Positions 12,623 through 19,207 of a DNA stretch of 64,000 bases are shown here, piece by piece. The notes below the pieces were generated by a model that did not search any database, was not told where the DNA came from, and worked only from the letters and a program-made list of their open reading frames with translations. The DNA comes from Armatimonadota bacterium (lineage in GTDB: Bacteria; Armatimonadota; UBA5829): the NCBI GenBank assembly GCA_012522575.1, contig JAAYKE010000071.1, forward strand, positions 2,058-66,057, read 5' to 3'. Each line of letters begins with the position of its first letter. Within the stretch, counting starts at the first letter, position 1. A program made the translations under genes and the position numbers.

Positions 12623-13495
12623 TTGAGCTTCCTATCAGCCGTGCAGAGAGACCTCCAAAGCGCCGGGTGGACGACAGTAATCGCCACTGTAGCCGACGTT
12701 GCCCTGGTCACACTTGCCGTCTATTGGGTTATTATGCTGTCCAAACGCAGGCCGGCATGGCAGATTCTATGGGGATTGCTGGTGTTTCTGGGCCTGGTTT
12801 ACCTCACCGAGCGAACGCAGCTTCACACAATAAACTTCCTGCTGAGATCATTTTTGTATGTCCTGCCGGTAGCGGTGGTTATACTCTTTCAGCCGGAACT
12901 GCGTCAAATGTTGGAGAATATGGGCAGTGTGGCGGGTTGGGGACGCGGGCTGGCAATGGTGCCGACGGAACAGGTCACCTCGCTCATCCACATTGTATCC
13001 CACGCAGCGGCCAACATGTCCGAAAGAAGAATCGGAGCGCTGATCGTAATAGAGCGGGAAAGTCCGCTTGATGCCATCGCTGCCACGGGAACCCGGCTGA
13101 ACGCAACGATAAGCGAGGAGCTAATTGGCTCGATATTCTACCCGGGAGGGCCGCTGCACGACGGCGCAGTAATTATTCGCGGCAACAGGGTAGTCTCTGC
13201 CGGGTGCACTCTGCCGCTCAGTGAAAGCGCGCACGTCGGCACTATGGTGCATACGCGACACAAAGCCGCCCTGGGAGTGGCCGAGGAGAGCGACGCCGCT
13301 GTGGTGGTGGTCTCAGAGGAGACAGGCACGATCTCACTTGCGCTGGAAGGCAAACTGCATCGCGGATTGGATCAGGAATCACTGATGCAGTGGTTGAAGC
13401 TGATATGCGGCACGCACGATGACTCCGCTTCGAAGGTGAAATTTGCACGGACTGTCGATGATACTCTCAGAAAGGCCGGGTTGAGACGCCGATGA
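12623..13495 (+). CDS. cdaA: Membrane diadenylate cyclase CdaA/DacA
   Basis: Three N-terminal TM helices, VILFQPELRQML, IGALIVIER, DGA motif (PLHDGAVII) and GTRH-like HTRHKAALG. Confidence 0.95.
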   Translation: MSFLSAVQRDLQSAGWTTVIATVADVALVTLAVYWVIMLSKRRPAWQILWGLLVFLGLVYLTERTQLHTINFLLRSFLYVLPVAVVILFQPELRQMLENMGSVAGWGRGLAMVPTEQVTSLIHIVSHAAANMSERRIGALIVIERESPLDAIAATGTRLNATISEELIGSIFYPGGPLHDGAVIIRGNRVVSAGCTLPLSESAHVGTMVHTRHKAALGVAEESDAAVVVVSEETGTISLALEGKLHRGLDQESLMQWLKLICGTHDDSASKVKFARTVDDTLRKAGLRRR

Positions 13496-14439
13496 TCCGG
13501 CATAACTGGAAATATAAACTACTGGCGCTTTTGGTAGCTCTGATTCTATGGACTTACGTCAATTCGGAGCGCAACCCGCAATCGCGTCAGACCTTCAGAG
13601 TGCCGGTGGATGTAATAGAGGTCAAAAAAGGGCACGTGGCGCAGCTTGGCGTCACCAAAGTTGCCGTAACGGTGGTTGGCCTCAAGACCGCCGTCGAGGC
13701 TGTGGCAAAAGAGGATATAGAAGCTTTTGTAAACGTGCGCTCTATGCCTCAGGATAAAAGCGTCTCCGAGGCTCAAATCCCCGTTCAGGTGCGCTTGCCC
13801 CGCGCGATAGCCGCTGATCTCGAAGTAACCGCAAACCCGCGCACATTGCAGGTGCGCGTAGAAGCTCTGGGAGAAAAACAAATACCGGTGACGGTCGGTT
13901 TCTTTGCCGAACCGCCTCCGGGATACTCCTACGGCACTCCCATACTCTCCCCTGCTGCCGTGGTTGCCTCCGGACTAGTGACCCAACTCTCAAAAATCAA
14001 CTCCGCTTCCATTACCATATCGAGCGATTTGGCAAGTTCGCCCAATGGCGACTACTGCGAGGTATCGGCTCTCGATAAAGAGGGAAATTCGGTCAGCGGA
14101 GTAAGCGTGCGGCCGGAGAAAATACGTGTCAAGCTGGGGATGGTCGAGATGCCGGCGACTAAGACCGTTATCGTCAGCCCAATATTCAGCGGCCAGCCGA
14201 AATATCCCGCCAGGGTTCAAAAATATACCGTCGTACCATCGTCGGTGACTTTGGAGGGCAAACCGAGCAGGCTTTCGAGCATAAGCGCAATAGCGACGGA
14301 CGCGATTTCACTGGAAGGGGCCGAGGCTACCATTGTTCGCGACATTTCCCTTGAAGTCCCATCCGGGACCAGGCCGACCGGATCAAGAACGGTCAGGGTC
14401 ACCGTCCACATTGCCGCGCCGCATCAGCCGGCGGAGTAG
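13492..14439 (+). CDS. cdaR: CdaA regulator CdaR (YbbR-domain protein)
   Basis: NWKYKLLALLVALILWTYV anchor followed by repeated YbbR-like beta domains; 4-nt overlap with cdaA. Confidence 0.88.
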   Translation: MIRHNWKYKLLALLVALILWTYVNSERNPQSRQTFRVPVDVIEVKKGHVAQLGVTKVAVTVVGLKTAVEAVAKEDIEAFVNVRSMPQDKSVSEAQIPVQVRLPRAIAADLEVTANPRTLQVRVEALGEKQIPVTVGFFAEPPPGYSYGTPILSPAAVVASGLVTQLSKINSASITISSDLASSPNGDYCEVSALDKEGNSVSGVSVRPEKIRVKLGMVEMPATKTVIVSPIFSGQPKYPARVQKYTVVPSSVTLEGKPSRLSSISAIATDAISLEGAEATIVRDISLEVPSGTRPTGSRTVRVTVHIAAPHQPAE

Positions 14440-14497: not shown

Positions 14498-15037
14498 CTA
14501 CGGTATATGCACATAAGCACTGAGTTTCGGCGCCAGCATCGGCACGCGCGACCTGTATTTCTTATATTCATCCCCAAATCGTATCAAAAGGCCGGCCTCT
14601 TCTGACTTGGCTACAAATAACCACACCACCCCGATAGCCGGCACTATGATAAACGCGGTCAGCGAGCCGCGCAGACACGCGATCCCGATCAACATAGACA
14701 GCAGTCCCAGCATCATCGGGTTGCGTGTGAAGGCATAAGGCCCGGTGGTGACCAGCGTCTGTGTGGGCTGAATCGCTCTGCCAAATAACTCCAGCGGAAG
14801 CCCGCGGCCAACAAAAAGCAGATATGCCCAGGCCCACAACACCCAGAATATGCCGAAGCCAATCCCCGCCGCTCCTGCAATAGCGGACCAGGGCGCGCCA
14901 AAGAGTCGGGACAGATTGAATGCCCTGTCCAACTCTGCAGTCACCAGCCAGAACGCGGCAGGAGCCACAAGGCCGACCAATATCACGCTTATGGCGGCTC
15001 CCACTACCCTTTTGTGAATCTGAATATCGTTTTCCAT
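14498..15037 (-). CDS. Isoprenylcysteine carboxyl methyltransferase / PEMT family membrane protein
   Basis: LVTTGPYAFTRNPMMLG...EEAGLLIRFGDEYKKYRSRVP. Confidence 0.85.
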   Translation of the reverse strand: MENDIQIHKRVVGAAISVILVGLVAPAAFWLVTAELDRAFNLSRLFGAPWSAIAGAAGIGFGIFWVLWAWAYLLFVGRGLPLELFGRAIQPTQTLVTTGPYAFTRNPMMLGLLSMLIGIACLRGSLTAFIIVPAIGVVWLFVAKSEEAGLLIRFGDEYKKYRSRVPMLAPKLSAYVHIP

Positions 15038-15279
15038 CTAACCGCTCCATATATCTATTACCCCTCGATTATGAGCTTAAATCATATCAATTGAAAGCAT
15101 ACGCAGTCGATCAAAAATCGCAATGCGTGACATTGTAAGTGTGTGGTGCTACACTATCTTTATCGCCAGGGTTACCGTCCTGGCGTCTCTTATTATTTTG
15201 TTTATTCTGTGAGATGCGGCTGTTTTTTGCGGCGTGTCCGGCGGATTAAACTCAGCTACATTTTTGACCGGGGGATCTT

Positions 15280-17109
15280 TTGTTTTCTATTATCAGAAGA
15301 ATGCTTTTTGGCAGACCGTTGGCCAGCGCGCGACAATCGCAGGAGCGGCTGAGCAACTTTCTCGCATTGCCTGTGTTTTCTTCCGACGCCGTGTCATCGG
15401 TAGCTTATGGGCCGGAGGAGATGCTGCTGGCGCTCATGGTTGCCGGCGCGATTGCGTGGACTGTGTCGCTGTATGTGGGCGGCGCGATTGCTTTGTTGAT
15501 CGTGATAGTGACGATCTCCTACCGCCAGACTATTTTTGCTTATCCGCAGGGCGGGGGCAGCTATACGGTCGCTACAGAGAACCTCGGAAGAAACTATGGG
15601 CTGGTTGCCGCTGCTGCTTTGCTTACTGATTATGTTCTTACCGTGGCGGTCAGCATCGCCTCCGGAGTATTTGCTTTTATATCGGCTTACCCGCAGTGGG
15701 CAGAATACCGAACGGAGATATGCGTTGTCTGCATTTTTATTGTTGCCCTGGCAAATTTGAGGGGACTTCGTGACTCCGGAGCCTTGTTTGTAGGGCCGAT
15801 GTATTTGTTCACGGGCAGCCTCTTTGTGATGTGCGCAGTGGGCATATATAAGGTTGTGACCGGGGCTCCTCTCAATTACGTTAACCCTCCGACCGAGCAA
15901 ATTCCGATCGCTCATTCGCTGGGGATGCTTCTAATCCTGCGCGCATTCTCAAACGGGTGTTCTGCAATGACCGGCATAGAATCGGTGGCGGTCGGAGTGC
16001 CGGCGTTCAAGCCGCCGGAGTCGAGGAACGCGGCCGCGGTAATGAGCATGATGGCGGTCATATTGATCAGCCTGGTTTTGGGAATTACATTTCTTGCACG
16101 CACCTACAGGGTCTTTCCATCTGCCGACGAGACCGTGATTTCACAGATGGCCAGAAGTATCCTCGGACGGGGAACGTTTTATCTTGTTATTCAGATATCC
16201 ACGTTTCTCGTGCTGGTATTGGCGGCCAACACCGCATTTCAGGGCTTCCCAAGGCTTGCATCCATGCTGGCGCGAGATCGATATGCCCCTCGGCAGCTTA
16301 CAAACATAGGGGACAAACTGGTTTTTTCTAACGGCATAGTATTGCTGGCGGCGGTGGCGGCAGGGCTTTTGATTAAGTTTCACGGAGACGTGCACTCGTT
16401 GATCCCGCTGTATGCGATTGGCGTATTCATATCCTTTACGCTGTCGCAGACGGGGATGGGTTTCAGACAGCTTCGTATGAAACACAAGGGCTGGCAACTG
16501 CATTCCGGAATCAGCTTCGCGGGCGCGACCATAACCTGCCTGGTCGCCATAGTAATAGGAGTAACCAAGTTTGTGGAGGGCGCATATATTGCATTGGCGC
16601 TGATTGCGGTCCTCATCTACGTGTTCCACAAGATTCATCAGCACTATGTCACCCTTGGCAATCAACTGCGATTGACGCCGGAGACATTCGAAGAACCACA
16701 GGAAGTGCGATCTACGGCGATTGTGTTGACTTCCAGCATACATAAGGGCATACTCCCGGCGTTGGAATACGCGCGCACGCTGTCTCACGACTGCCGTGCG
16801 TTGTTCATTGAAATAGACCCGATAGAAACGGCGATGATACGAGAGCGGTGGGATAAATACGGGCTGGGCGTGCCGCTGGTGATACTGGAATCTCCCTACA
16901 GGTCAATGATCGGGCCTATTTTGGCATACCTCAGGGAGGTTAAAAAAGAGAGGCCCAACCACGTGGTGACGGTGGTGCTGCCGGAGTTCGTGCCCAGAAA
17001 ATGGTGGCATAAACTGCTGCACAATCAGTCCGGCCTGTTCCTGAAGATAGCCCTGATGATGCAGCACGACATAGTGTTCACCAATGTTCGTTACTATATA
17101 GAGAGATAA
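15280..17109 (+). CDS. kimA: APC-family K+/H+ symporter, KimA/YdaO-like
   Basis: GRPLAS..ERL..LALPVFSSDAVSSVAYGPEE, QTIFAYPQGGGSY, AFSNGCSAMTGIESVAVGVPAFKPP, and a C-terminal PEFVPRKWWHKLLHNQS domain. Confidence 0.85.
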   Translation: MFSIIRRMLFGRPLASARQSQERLSNFLALPVFSSDAVSSVAYGPEEMLLALMVAGAIAWTVSLYVGGAIALLIVIVTISYRQTIFAYPQGGGSYTVATENLGRNYGLVAAAALLTDYVLTVAVSIASGVFAFISAYPQWAEYRTEICVVCIFIVALANLRGLRDSGALFVGPMYLFTGSLFVMCAVGIYKVVTGAPLNYVNPPTEQIPIAHSLGMLLILRAFSNGCSAMTGIESVAVGVPAFKPPESRNAAAVMSMMAVILISLVLGITFLARTYRVFPSADETVISQMARSILGRGTFYLVIQISTFLVLVLAANTAFQGFPRLASMLARDRYAPRQLTNIGDKLVFSNGIVLLAAVAAGLLIKFHGDVHSLIPLYAIGVFISFTLSQTGMGFRQLRMKHKGWQLHSGISFAGATITCLVAIVIGVTKFVEGAYIALALIAVLIYVFHKIHQHYVTLGNQLRLTPETFEEPQEVRSTAIVLTSSIHKGILPALEYARTLSHDCRALFIEIDPIETAMIRERWDKYGLGVPLVILESPYRSMIGPILAYLREVKKERPNHVVTVVLPEFVPRKWWHKLLHNQSGLFLKIALMMQHDIVFTNVRYYIER

Positions 17110-17110
17110 A

Positions 17111-18304
17111 ATGATAATCGAGGCTCGCGACGATACAATAACCCTGCGCGGGGAGGTGAAATCCAATTTATGGCCGGCGATCCAGGCGGCGGCGGCCCTG
17201 CTGTTGGAAAATCATCCCACCGGCATAATACTTGACGGATCAACCATAACAAAGATAACTCCCGAAGGCGCGGAGACGTTTTCAGACGCATTTGCGTTCA
17301 TTGCCGCGCATAATGCCCGGATTATGATGGTCGGCCTTACCGCCGAGGAGTTGGAAATCGGAAAAACCGTTCCCGGAGTGAGGTCACAACTGCCGATAGC
17401 GGCCACCATCGAAGAAGCGAGATATTCGCTGCAGCTTGGCGAGGCGACGCCGCACAGGGGCAAGGCGCAGACCGCCGGAGTGGTTCCCATGCTAGGCCAC
17501 TGGAAAAGAGCGGTCTATCTTGCCGACAAGCTCGCAATCGGGCTTAATTGTGAGATTCACCTGGTGGACCTTATAAAAGTTCCTCGGACATTGCCTCTCG
17601 GCAGCCCGCTGCCTGAGCGGGAGGAGGATGGACAGGCGCGGTTGAAAGAGGGGCAGGGACTGGTGCGCCAAACAGGTCTGACTAGCTTTACGCACGTCCA
17701 GCGCATTCGGTCAGGGGCTGAATTGGGCGAGTTTGCCGGGCGGCTCAATGCGGACTTTACGTTGATAAGCATCGATCACTGCCGGGACGATGGACTCAGA
17801 ATGGAGCAGTCTGAGGCTCTGGCGCTGCTCGAGGAGGCTCCCCTTGAGGTATCTATTATAAAAGGGTCCCCCGCGAATCCCGTTCAACCCCCTGTCAACG
17901 TTGTTGTTCCTGCTACGGGAGCGTGGAATCATGCGGTGCGCCACGCCTGCAAGCTTGTCGATGGAGAGCCGAACGCGCGGGTCACTCTGGTGTCTGTGAT
18001 CGCGATTCCTCGCAGCCAGCCTCTGGATACCCCTAAGCCCGATGCGGATGCGGCGGTGGCGGATTATGCGAAAGAGGCGGTTCGAATTGGCAAAAGGTAT
18101 GGAGTTGTTATAAACTCCGTTCTGGAAAGGGTTCGGGACCCCGTGCTGGGATTTCTGAAAATCGTAGAAGAAGGCAAGTTCGATCTGGCTGTTGTGGGAC
18201 TGAAACGAGAGACCCGCGGGGATTATCACATCTCCCATTCGATGGCCCTTATGCTTATCAACAAACTGCCCTGCGAGGTAATGTCTATCAGACAGGCGCG
18301 GTAA
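17111..18304 (+). CDS. STAS-like domain fused to two universal-stress (USP) domains
   Basis: The N-terminus (TITLRGEV..IILDGSTITKITPEG..IMMVGL..ATIEEA) fits a STAS pattern. Two USP-like repeats follow (IHLVDLIKVPRTLPL; VTLVSVIAIPRSQPL..FDLAVVG..LINKLPCEVM). Confidence 0.65.
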   Translation: MIIEARDDTITLRGEVKSNLWPAIQAAAALLLENHPTGIILDGSTITKITPEGAETFSDAFAFIAAHNARIMMVGLTAEELEIGKTVPGVRSQLPIAATIEEARYSLQLGEATPHRGKAQTAGVVPMLGHWKRAVYLADKLAIGLNCEIHLVDLIKVPRTLPLGSPLPEREEDGQARLKEGQGLVRQTGLTSFTHVQRIRSGAELGEFAGRLNADFTLISIDHCRDDGLRMEQSEALALLEEAPLEVSIIKGSPANPVQPPVNVVVPATGAWNHAVRHACKLVDGEPNARVTLVSVIAIPRSQPLDTPKPDADAAVADYAKEAVRIGKRYGVVINSVLERVRDPVLGFLKIVEEGKFDLAVVGLKRETRGDYHISHSMALMLINKLPCEVMSIRQAR

Positions 18305-18328: not shown

Positions 18329-19135
18329 GTGCAGGACAGAAATATCGACAAATCACGCATAAACGACGAGTATGAAGCTTTGGTCGAAACGGTTGCGCGT
18401 CTTCGTGCGCCCGATGGATGCCCGTGGGATCGCCAGCAGACGCATGCCTCTCTCAAAAAACACGCGGTAGAGGAGACCTACGAGGTGCTCGAAGCGATTG
18501 ACTCCGGCGATCCGGCGCGCCTTCAAGACGAACTCGGAGATATGCTGCTTCAAGTGCTGCTGCACGCTGAAATTGCAAGGGATGCCGGTCAATTTGATAT
18601 AGCCGACGTCTGCCGCACAATACGCAACAAACTGCACAGAAGACATCCCCATGTATTTGCCGATGTGCAGGTAGACGGGGTCGACGATGTTTTGCACAAC
18701 TGGGATCAGATTAAGCGCGCAGAACCGGAAAATCAGGATCGCAAATCAGCGCTCGATGGCGTCCCGAGAAACCTGCCCGCGCTTATGAGAGCGGCCAAAC
18801 TAAGCAAAAAGGCTGCCCAGACCGGCTTTGACTGGCCGGAAGTCTCCGCGATATTTGATAAACTGCGCGAGGAAACCATCGAGCTTGAACAGGCCATAGA
18901 GGATGCGGATAAGGATCAGGTGCGCTTTGAGATAGGGGATTTGTTGTTCACGATAGTAAACATCGCCAGACATCAGGACATAGACCCGGAGGACGCGCTT
19001 CGCGAAATGCTGGACAGGTTCGCGTTCAGGTTCGGGCGCATAGAACAACATGCGGCGGATTCAGGCAAAAATATATCCGATATGACTCTATCCGAAATGG
19101 ACGCCATCTGGGACAAGGCGAAAGATAGTCAATAG
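18329..19135 (+). CDS. mazG: Nucleoside triphosphate pyrophosphohydrolase MazG
   Basis: LRAPDGCPWDRQQTH, EETYEVLEAI, DELGDMLL, KLHRRHPHVF, GFDW, EIGDLLF. Confidence 0.95.
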   Translation: MQDRNIDKSRINDEYEALVETVARLRAPDGCPWDRQQTHASLKKHAVEETYEVLEAIDSGDPARLQDELGDMLLQVLLHAEIARDAGQFDIADVCRTIRNKLHRRHPHVFADVQVDGVDDVLHNWDQIKRAEPENQDRKSALDGVPRNLPALMRAAKLSKKAAQTGFDWPEVSAIFDKLREETIELEQAIEDADKDQVRFEIGDLLFTIVNIARHQDIDPEDALREMLDRFAFRFGRIEQHAADSGKNISDMTLSEMDAIWDKAKDSQ

Positions 19136-19207
19136 GCCGCGTTTCGAGCCAAACCTGCGCCGCAGCTTGCGCGGGAATTTGATTTGTGCGCAATGACACA
19201 ATATAGC

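Follow-up and report, generated by a model that had tools for sequence, protein, structure and literature searches.

A STAS-USP protein family of Armatimonadota encoded with the potassium symporter KimA as its candidate regulatory partner

What does a protein that joins a STAS domain to universal stress protein (USP)-like domains do beside a potassium transporter? The question is raised by a 64,000-nucleotide stretch of DNA from an Armatimonadota bacterium (assembly GCA_012522575.1, contig JAAYKE010000071.1, positions 2,058 to 66,057; hereafter the window), in which a gene for such a protein, here called the STAS-USP-USP gene, directly follows kimA, the gene of the K+/H+ symporter KimA (Table 1). 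We propose, with a probability of roughly 0.55, that the gene encodes a soluble cytoplasmic regulatory partner of KimA which is made together with the transporter from one transcript. That it belongs to a conserved, uncharacterised Armatimonadota family with a functional link to KimA is well supported by comparative sequence evidence. A search of the literature found no paper on a STAS-USP architecture linked to KimA and none on a KimA accessory protein.

The protein is predicted to begin with a STAS fold, after which come two USP-like domains that are homologous to each other. This architecture had been proposed in a preliminary description of the locus, made from the sequence alone, and it is borne out by profile searches and by two confident AlphaFold models, including the assignment of the N-terminus to the STAS fold. 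Taken singly, the sequence yields one Usp match in Pfam (PF00582, residues 273-393, 45.6 bits against a cut-off of 24), a STAS match (PF01740) that stays below the Pfam threshold, and nothing beyond noise in a search of the PDB. Among its relatives, PF01740 is matched individually by the N-terminal domains of 27 out of 31, and the profile of 31 such domains matches entries of the PDB such as 4hyl (E 3e-7), 1sbo, 1th8 and 8tnw, the proteins matched including TM1442, SpoIIAA-type anti-sigma antagonists, SulP STAS domains, RsbS and MlaB. The AlphaFold2 model of residues 1-112 alone (pLDDT 92.7) has the topology b1 b2 a1 b3 a2 b4 a3 a4, and Foldseek aligns it to SpoIIAA, RsbS, other anti-sigma antagonists and SLC26 STAS domains at TM 0.70-0.77. 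The full-length model, built with 45 homologues (pLDDT 91.4, pTM 0.85), has three a/b domains and is matched by the tandem USPs Rv2623, UspE/YdaA and TTHA0350 (Foldseek, E 1e-8 to 1e-10). Pfam missed the middle domain, which hhalign shows to be homologous to the C-terminal one over 132 columns (99.7%, E 2e-26).

Within the family the STAS domain is the most conserved part and its helix a1 (WPAIQAAAALLL) is nearly invariant. USP-like domain 1 carries a family-specific, proline-rich loop after strand b2 (VPRxLPLxxPLPExE, residues 157-171), together with an HxERxR strand (HxxRxR, residues 195-200). As the USP-like domain is duplicated in the GTDB family to which the window belongs, the long form is probably an intramolecular USP pseudo-dimer, by analogy with Rv2623 or UspE.

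The link to KimA is drawn from the distribution of the two proteins and the arrangement of their genes. We searched 301 Armatimonadota genomes with both the protein and KimA, counting STAS-containing homologues at E ≤ 1e-18. Homologue and KimA occurred together in 132 genomes, KimA alone in 86 and neither in 83, and there was no genome with the homologue but without KimA (Fisher p 9e-27 for co-occurrence, a statistic that ignores phylogeny). One apparent absence within the genus of the window (genome G189) is an assembly break inside kimA. Where the positions of both genes were listed, kimA was directly followed by the STAS-USP gene on the same strand in 47 of 85 genomes, the 47 being spread over many families, and in several families the two genes overlap or are 3-30 nt apart at protein identities down to 35-45%. 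Counted over unique loci, kimA lies directly upstream in 34 of 66, with further adjacent cases in other loci, including one in which the order is reversed. The recurrence of this arrangement across the phylum shows that it is not due to chance.

Some Armatimonadota seem to pair KimA with other soluble proteins. Of 20 sampled genomes with KimA that lack the STAS form, 5 (loci L098, L099, L100, L101 and L104) carry, 47-64 nt after kimA and on the same strand, a gene for a USP of one domain (143-166 aa) that has a similar loop, VPLxxPLP, and these USPs align with the C-terminal domain of the STAS-USP-USP protein (hhalign 97%). In another 3 of the 20 (L109, L110 and L113) a 153-aa TrkA_N/RCK protein follows on the same strand. 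Both look like alternative soluble partners of KimA, and the phylum seems to make a habit of pairing this transporter with soluble proteins of a regulatory type.

In the window itself, the kimA stop codon TAA (17107-17109) is separated by a lone spacer base (17110) from the ATG of the STAS-USP-USP gene at 17111, and a purine-rich, Shine-Dalgarno-like GAGAGA lies 6-11 nt 5' of this ATG, within the 3' end of kimA. The gene's own stop codon, TAA, ends at 18304; 24 nt later mazG begins with a GTG at 18329, preceded by GGAG. Both gaps had been given in the preliminary description, along with the motifs TPEG, VPRTLPL and IPRSQPL, and all were reproduced. Given the 1-nt gap, the 24-nt gap and a terminator-like hairpin that follows mazG and likely marks the operon end, kimA, the STAS-USP-USP gene and mazG probably form one transcription unit with mazG as its last gene.

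Strict co-occurrence, conserved adjacency and the precedents of USP- and STAS-type transporter regulators (Rv2623-Rv1747, UspC-KdpD, SLC26/SulP STAS, MlaB and SLC12) are why we read the protein as a regulatory partner of KimA. The early suggestion that it acts on K+ uptake is strengthened by the co-occurrence and by the adjacency over many families; that the protein physically binds KimA, which way it regulates the transporter and what kind of signal it answers to are what we infer rather than observe. A plausible course of events would be that the STAS domain, or the proline-rich USP loop, docks on the cytosolic face of the KimA dimer and that docking alters how actively KimA transports, according to a signal from the cell. 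This signal might enter via the USP-like domains, through a ligand other than canonically bound ATP, or via modification of the STAS domain. Short forms of the protein have a single USP-like domain and would probably homodimerise through it, as is common among USPs, so that two copies would match the KimA dimer; a USP pseudo-dimer would already be built into the long form.

A bolder version of this proposal can be offered only tentatively, and we think it possible rather than probable. It would make the protein a trans-acting gating subunit of KUP/KimA-type K+ transporters and a detached bacterial counterpart of the SLC12 USP-like domains, docking on the KimA dimer as a second layer of control above the c-di-AMP (cyclic di-AMP) site of KimA itself. 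Its input would come either from an unusual ligand in the USP pocket, which has none of the known motifs, or from a phospho-switch in which a kinase and a PP2C act on T50 of the STAS domain, the latter tying K+ uptake to a partner-switching stress pathway.

Several results weigh against a role as KimA's partner, besides the blindness of the co-occurrence statistic to phylogeny. Roughly half of the unique loci, and families f18, f29, f6 and f11 as a whole, have the gene away from kimA, and its neighbours at unlinked loci are either unrelated (serpins, HAD hydrolase, beta-lactamase-family, PHP, Bmp) or a PP2C phosphatase. The 86 genomes with KimA alone mean that KimA does not need the STAS-USP protein. 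When each domain was aligned by hhalign to the KimA cytosolic-domain alignment, nothing was found (probability ≤3%), which leaves hetero-dimerisation with the KimA cytosolic domain through homologous folds without sequence support. Lastly, no KimA residue co-varies with the presence of the protein beyond clade structure. The candidates for such co-variation were residue 334 (at about nt 16279-16281), which lies in the loop between TM8 and TM9, four positions ahead of the Arg that binds c-di-AMP, and is itself Arg in 31 of 32 KimAs beside a STAS-USP gene and Gly in most others, and several charged positions within 551-558, which also separated STAS-USP-adjacent from other KimAs. They were rejected because paralogue and lineage controls showed them to track the KimA clade and not the presence of the partner.

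The family is best described as a variant of known USP- and STAS-type transporter regulators. Among the USPs, the tandem USP Rv2623 of Mycobacterium tuberculosis regulates the transporter Rv1747, to which it binds (PMC5549992), and in Escherichia coli the USP domain of KdpD is a binding partner of UspC (PMC2714519). Rv2623, UspE/YdaA (E. coli/Salmonella) and TTHA0350 (Thermus thermophilus) likewise have two USP a/b domains per chain and are the best structural matches; however, they lack an N-terminal STAS domain, share 14-19% identity with the STAS-USP-USP protein and, in the case of Rv2623 and TTHA0350, bind ATP via a G-x2-G-x9-G-(S/T) motif that is missing from the STAS-USP family. The KdpD USP domain, a c-di-AMP receptor in Staphylococcus aureus, and the UspC-KdpD pair of E. 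coli are further cases of USP domains controlling K+ uptake (PMC8214093, PMC4686210, PMC2714519), but they act on transcription via a histidine kinase, and the KdpD-USP c-di-AMP consensus is absent from the family.

On the STAS side, the SLC26/SulP STAS domain and MlaB of the Mla ABC transporter have the same fold and act on a membrane transporter from the cytosolic side, as a module for regulation or interaction; like the STAS-USP protein, MlaB is a polypeptide of its own. KimA, by contrast, is a K+ symporter of the KUP/APC type, and the STAS domain encoded in trans to it is fused to USP-like domains and is nearer in sequence to the SpoIIAA type than to SulP STAS. In both sequence and fold the N-terminal domain is best matched by SpoIIAA/RsbV, and one STAS-USP lineage has a PP2C neighbour; unlike SpoIIAA/RsbV, the STAS domain of the window protein is fused to USP-like domains, the residue aligned to the phospho-Ser is Pro, no kinase or sigma gene adjoins, and the conserved partner gene is that of a transporter. 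The C-terminal domains of the SLC12 transporters KCC, NKCC and NCC also combine an APC/LeuT-fold ion transporter with a cytosolic module of two USP-like lobes, and they match the model more weakly (e.g., 6vwa and 6m22; E 1e-7 to 1e-5). The resemblance is structural only, as this module is covalently attached, eukaryotic and 9-13% identical, and KimA, unlike SLC12, already has its own PPAT-like cytosolic domain. In proposed principle, an operon-encoded cytoplasmic sensor controlling the neighbouring transporter, the protein resembles GlnK, SbtB and TeaD. GlnK-AmtB and SbtB-SbtA are pairs in which a small soluble sensor, encoded next to a transporter, binds and gates it, and TeaD, whose gene belongs to the ectoine transporter operon teaABCD, is a single, ATP-binding USP. 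However, the folds of GlnK and SbtB are of the unrelated PII type, and none of the three pairings involves KimA.

Alternatively, the protein could be a general stress-type USP that is co-expressed with kimA, e.g., under K+ limitation, acid or osmotic stress, and acts on other targets without binding KimA. Many USPs have no defined partner, and both the lineages in which the gene is unlinked from kimA and the genomes with KimA alone would suit such a role. Nonetheless, we consider it unlikely, since the protein never occurs without KimA (132 of 132), the very short or overlapping junctions are kept over deep divergence, and the most conserved part of the family is its STAS domain, a protein-interaction module.

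The preliminary description had instead suggested a new receptor for c-di-AMP or another nucleotide, and in its fullest form this reading makes the USP-like domains the binding site for c-di-AMP, ATP or (p)ppGpp and the protein a relay of that signal to KimA. USP domains commonly bind nucleotides, that of KdpD binding c-di-AMP (PMC4686210, PMC8214093), and the genomic setting would fit: in the window cdaA, which encodes a diadenylate cyclase (DAC), and cdaR lie close upstream of kimA, the nucleotide pyrophosphohydrolase gene mazG comes next after the STAS-USP-USP gene, and nearly all genomes with the STAS-USP protein have a DAC. We found no positive evidence for such a receptor, which now appears improbable. 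The motif of ATP-binding USPs, G-x2-G-x9-G-(S/T), and that of the c-di-AMP-binding KdpD USP, (A/G/C)-x-S-x-S-x2-N-(Y/F) (PMC8214093), as well as the older SxS-x20-FTAxY, were absent from all 168 family members, of which 109 are long and 59 short, and the b1-a1 loop of both USP-like domains reads VPxxGxW where ATP-binding USPs have a conserved Asp.

The genomic setting does not rescue the receptor. A DAC is near-universal in the phylum (290 of the 301 genomes), so that co-occurrence with it carries no information, and G085, a genome of 97% completeness, encodes the protein and KimA but gave no DAC match at E ≤ 1e-10; the reversed locus (L018, G085:C109), where the STAS-USP gene comes before kimA in the same orientation, is from this genome. 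The proximity of cdaA to kimA is kept within the genus only, and mazG adjoins the STAS-USP gene in a single GTDB family, in most of its members, and not at loci L003/L004 and L018-L034. Both adjacencies were therefore rejected as functional links.

KimA may also have no need of a separate receptor. The upstream protein is a full-length match to Bacillus subtilis KimA (PDB 6s3k/8b70, E 1e-146, residues 1-608), which contacts c-di-AMP through Arg337 and His579-Asn-Gln-Ser582 (PMC10284832). The window KimA keeps R338, equivalent to Arg337, and HNQS at 581-584, although the equivalent of Pro479 is missing, and each of the 32 unique Armatimonadota KimA C-terminal domains examined, mostly from kimA genes adjoining a STAS-USP gene, has HNQS or a near variant. 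With these residues kept, the transporter presumably senses c-di-AMP by itself.

Given its resemblance to SpoIIAA- and RsbV-type antagonists, the STAS domain might instead be a phosphorylation-controlled partner switch, acting either as an anti-anti-sigma factor that releases a SigB/F-type sigma factor or through a phospho-state that decides KimA binding. The replacement of the phosphorylated DS(S/A)G by TPEG, noted from the start, holds in that TPEG aligns to the D-S-S-G of SpoIIAA with P51 at the phospho-Ser position, where the family mostly has P, A or E. T50, the residue just before P51, stands at the N-terminus of helix a2; of 165 members, 155 have T or S there and none has Asp. Such conservation would fit either a shifted phospho-site or a helix N-cap, a place classically taken by T, S or N.

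A phosphatase does stand beside the gene in one lineage. In Capsulimonadaceae and Armatimonadales, a short STAS-USP gene unlinked from kimA lies directly 3' of a PP2C/SpoIIE-family phosphatase gene at eight loci (L040, Table 1, and L065, L077, L079, L082, L083, L085 and L091), with a HAD hydrolase often before the phosphatase. This neighbour hints at phospho-regulation of the STAS domain there, yet two of the PP2C-linked loci seem to lack T/S at position 50.

The remaining evidence is also divided. At least six RsbW-like kinases are encoded in the genome (eight HATPase_c_2 and seven STAS matches, six of each above the Pfam cut-off), and partner switches with non-sigma outputs are known (PMC8256260). 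However, all kinase and canonical STAS matches lie on contigs other than that of the window, three of the HATPase_c_2 matches being directly beside STAS matches. PP2C is upstream in none of 34 kimA-linked loci, none of which has a kinase or phosphatase neighbour, and no kinase or phosphatase gene adjoins the STAS-USP-USP gene in the window, its neighbours being kimA and mazG. The SigB-like sigma factor to which the protein had been tentatively linked is a sigma-GGDEF fusion encoded 16 kb away in a pilus cluster, and that link found no support. We regard partner switching by this protein as quite improbable.

That MazG is the partner, with the protein regulating nucleotide pyrophosphohydrolase activity rather than K+ transport, would agree with the 24-nt gap and with kimA-gene-mazG synteny across most members of the window's GTDB family, but is very improbable given that outside this family kimA is adjacent and mazG is not.

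If KimA does have a conserved, operon-encoded partner, K+ uptake would come under a second kind of control, and this in a phylum that has been little studied; the control of KimA known so far is by c-di-AMP, acting on the protein and, in Firmicutes, via the ydaO riboswitch. It would also give a first functional handle on the STAS-USP architecture, which is labelled 'universal stress protein' in databases. The phylum's other pairings of kimA, with a single USP or with an RCK protein, allow a natural comparison of how soluble sensor domains are recruited to APC-fold transporters, and cultured relatives may allow testing, as the family is present in metagenome-assembled genomes (MAGs) of Capsulimonas.

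Among the genomes searched the family is confined to Armatimonadota, and it is labelled only generically in databases. Among 5.8 billion clustered proteins we found 112 relatives, nearly all of 395-402 aa and, where named, called 'universal stress protein' or 'STAS domain-containing protein' from Armatimonadota. An exhaustive HMMER search of 1.84 billion representatives gave only 171 clusters at E ≤ 1e-3, most of them about 260 aa long and matching residues 1-250 only. From this we take the ancestral unit to be a STAS domain with one USP-like domain, of about 260 aa, and the second USP-like domain to be a lineage-specific duplication. USP-like domain 2 is found in the window's GTDB family and a few other lineages and is missing from the forms of about 260 aa that prevail elsewhere. 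Of 53 confirmed loci in named genomes, 52 fit Armatimonadota, including Capsulimonas and Capsulimonadaceae; most carry that title, and some only 'uncultured bacterium'. The exception (L080; JBPBQB010000263.1, 3118 bp), binned as 'Janthinobacterium lividum', carries an Armatimonadota-type short STAS-USP gene with 37% identity and is probably a binning error in a MAG.

Table 1. Features of the locus, with positions in the window except for the last row, which gives positions in locus L040
Feature	Position	Strand	Description and basis
cdaA (diadenylate cyclase, DAC domain) and cdaR (YbbR)	12623..14439	+	0.8 kb 5' of kimA; Pfam
kimA	15280..17109	+	609 aa; K+/H+ symporter, KUP/APC type, with C-terminal cytosolic domain; full-length KimA match
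STAS-USP-USP gene	17111..18304	+	397 aa; open reading frame call
STAS domain, residues 1-112	17111..17446	+	PDB profile search, PF01740 in relatives, AlphaFold2 model and Foldseek
TPEG, residues 50-53, b3-a2 junction	17258-17269	+	HMM alignment to D-S(P)-S-G of SpoIIAA
USP-like domain 1, residues 121-251	17471..17863	+	hhalign to domain 2, fold, conserved motifs
VPRTLPL, residues 157-163, in USP-like domain 1	17579-17599
USP-like domain 2, residues 263-394	17897..18292	+	Pfam Usp E 1.4e-11, residues 273-393
IPRSQPL, residues 299-305, in USP-like domain 2	18005-18025
mazG	18329..19135	+	nucleoside triphosphate pyrophosphohydrolase; profile match
Terminator-like hairpin with T-rich tail, 3' of mazG	19154-19175	+	consensus scan only
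PP2C-linked locus	L040:7702-8352	-	216-aa phosphatase with DGQGG and VSDGV motifs; PF07228, 27.7 bits

Some loci depart from the usual arrangement. Two tandem kimA copies lie immediately 5' of the STAS-USP gene in several genomes (G034:C18:2071-5894, G020:C39:101736-105528, G282:C161:2640-6882 and G073:C1:628579-632611), and G007 has three tandem kimA copies with its STAS-USP gene elsewhere. At L093 (CAVQDB010000002.1; protein P0110) a close relative of 59-70% identity was called as 262 aa and matches only residues 72-211. A tblastn match over residues 1-396 is weak for this identity, and the locus may hold a frameshifted or broken copy beside kimA.

Upstream of kimA in the window, a minus-strand PEMT/ICMT gene stands between cdaR and kimA. 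Rfam detected no riboswitch, ydaO included, ahead of kimA, either at gathering thresholds across the entire window or at E ≤ 1 within 14900-15400. The kimA leader (15127-15200) contains a promoter-like GTGACA-17-TACACT with a TG upstream of the site. Right after it, about 95 nt 5' of the TTG start of kimA, come a strong hairpin of nine pairs (15164-15185) and a T-rich run, which could be a terminator, an attenuator or a chance match.

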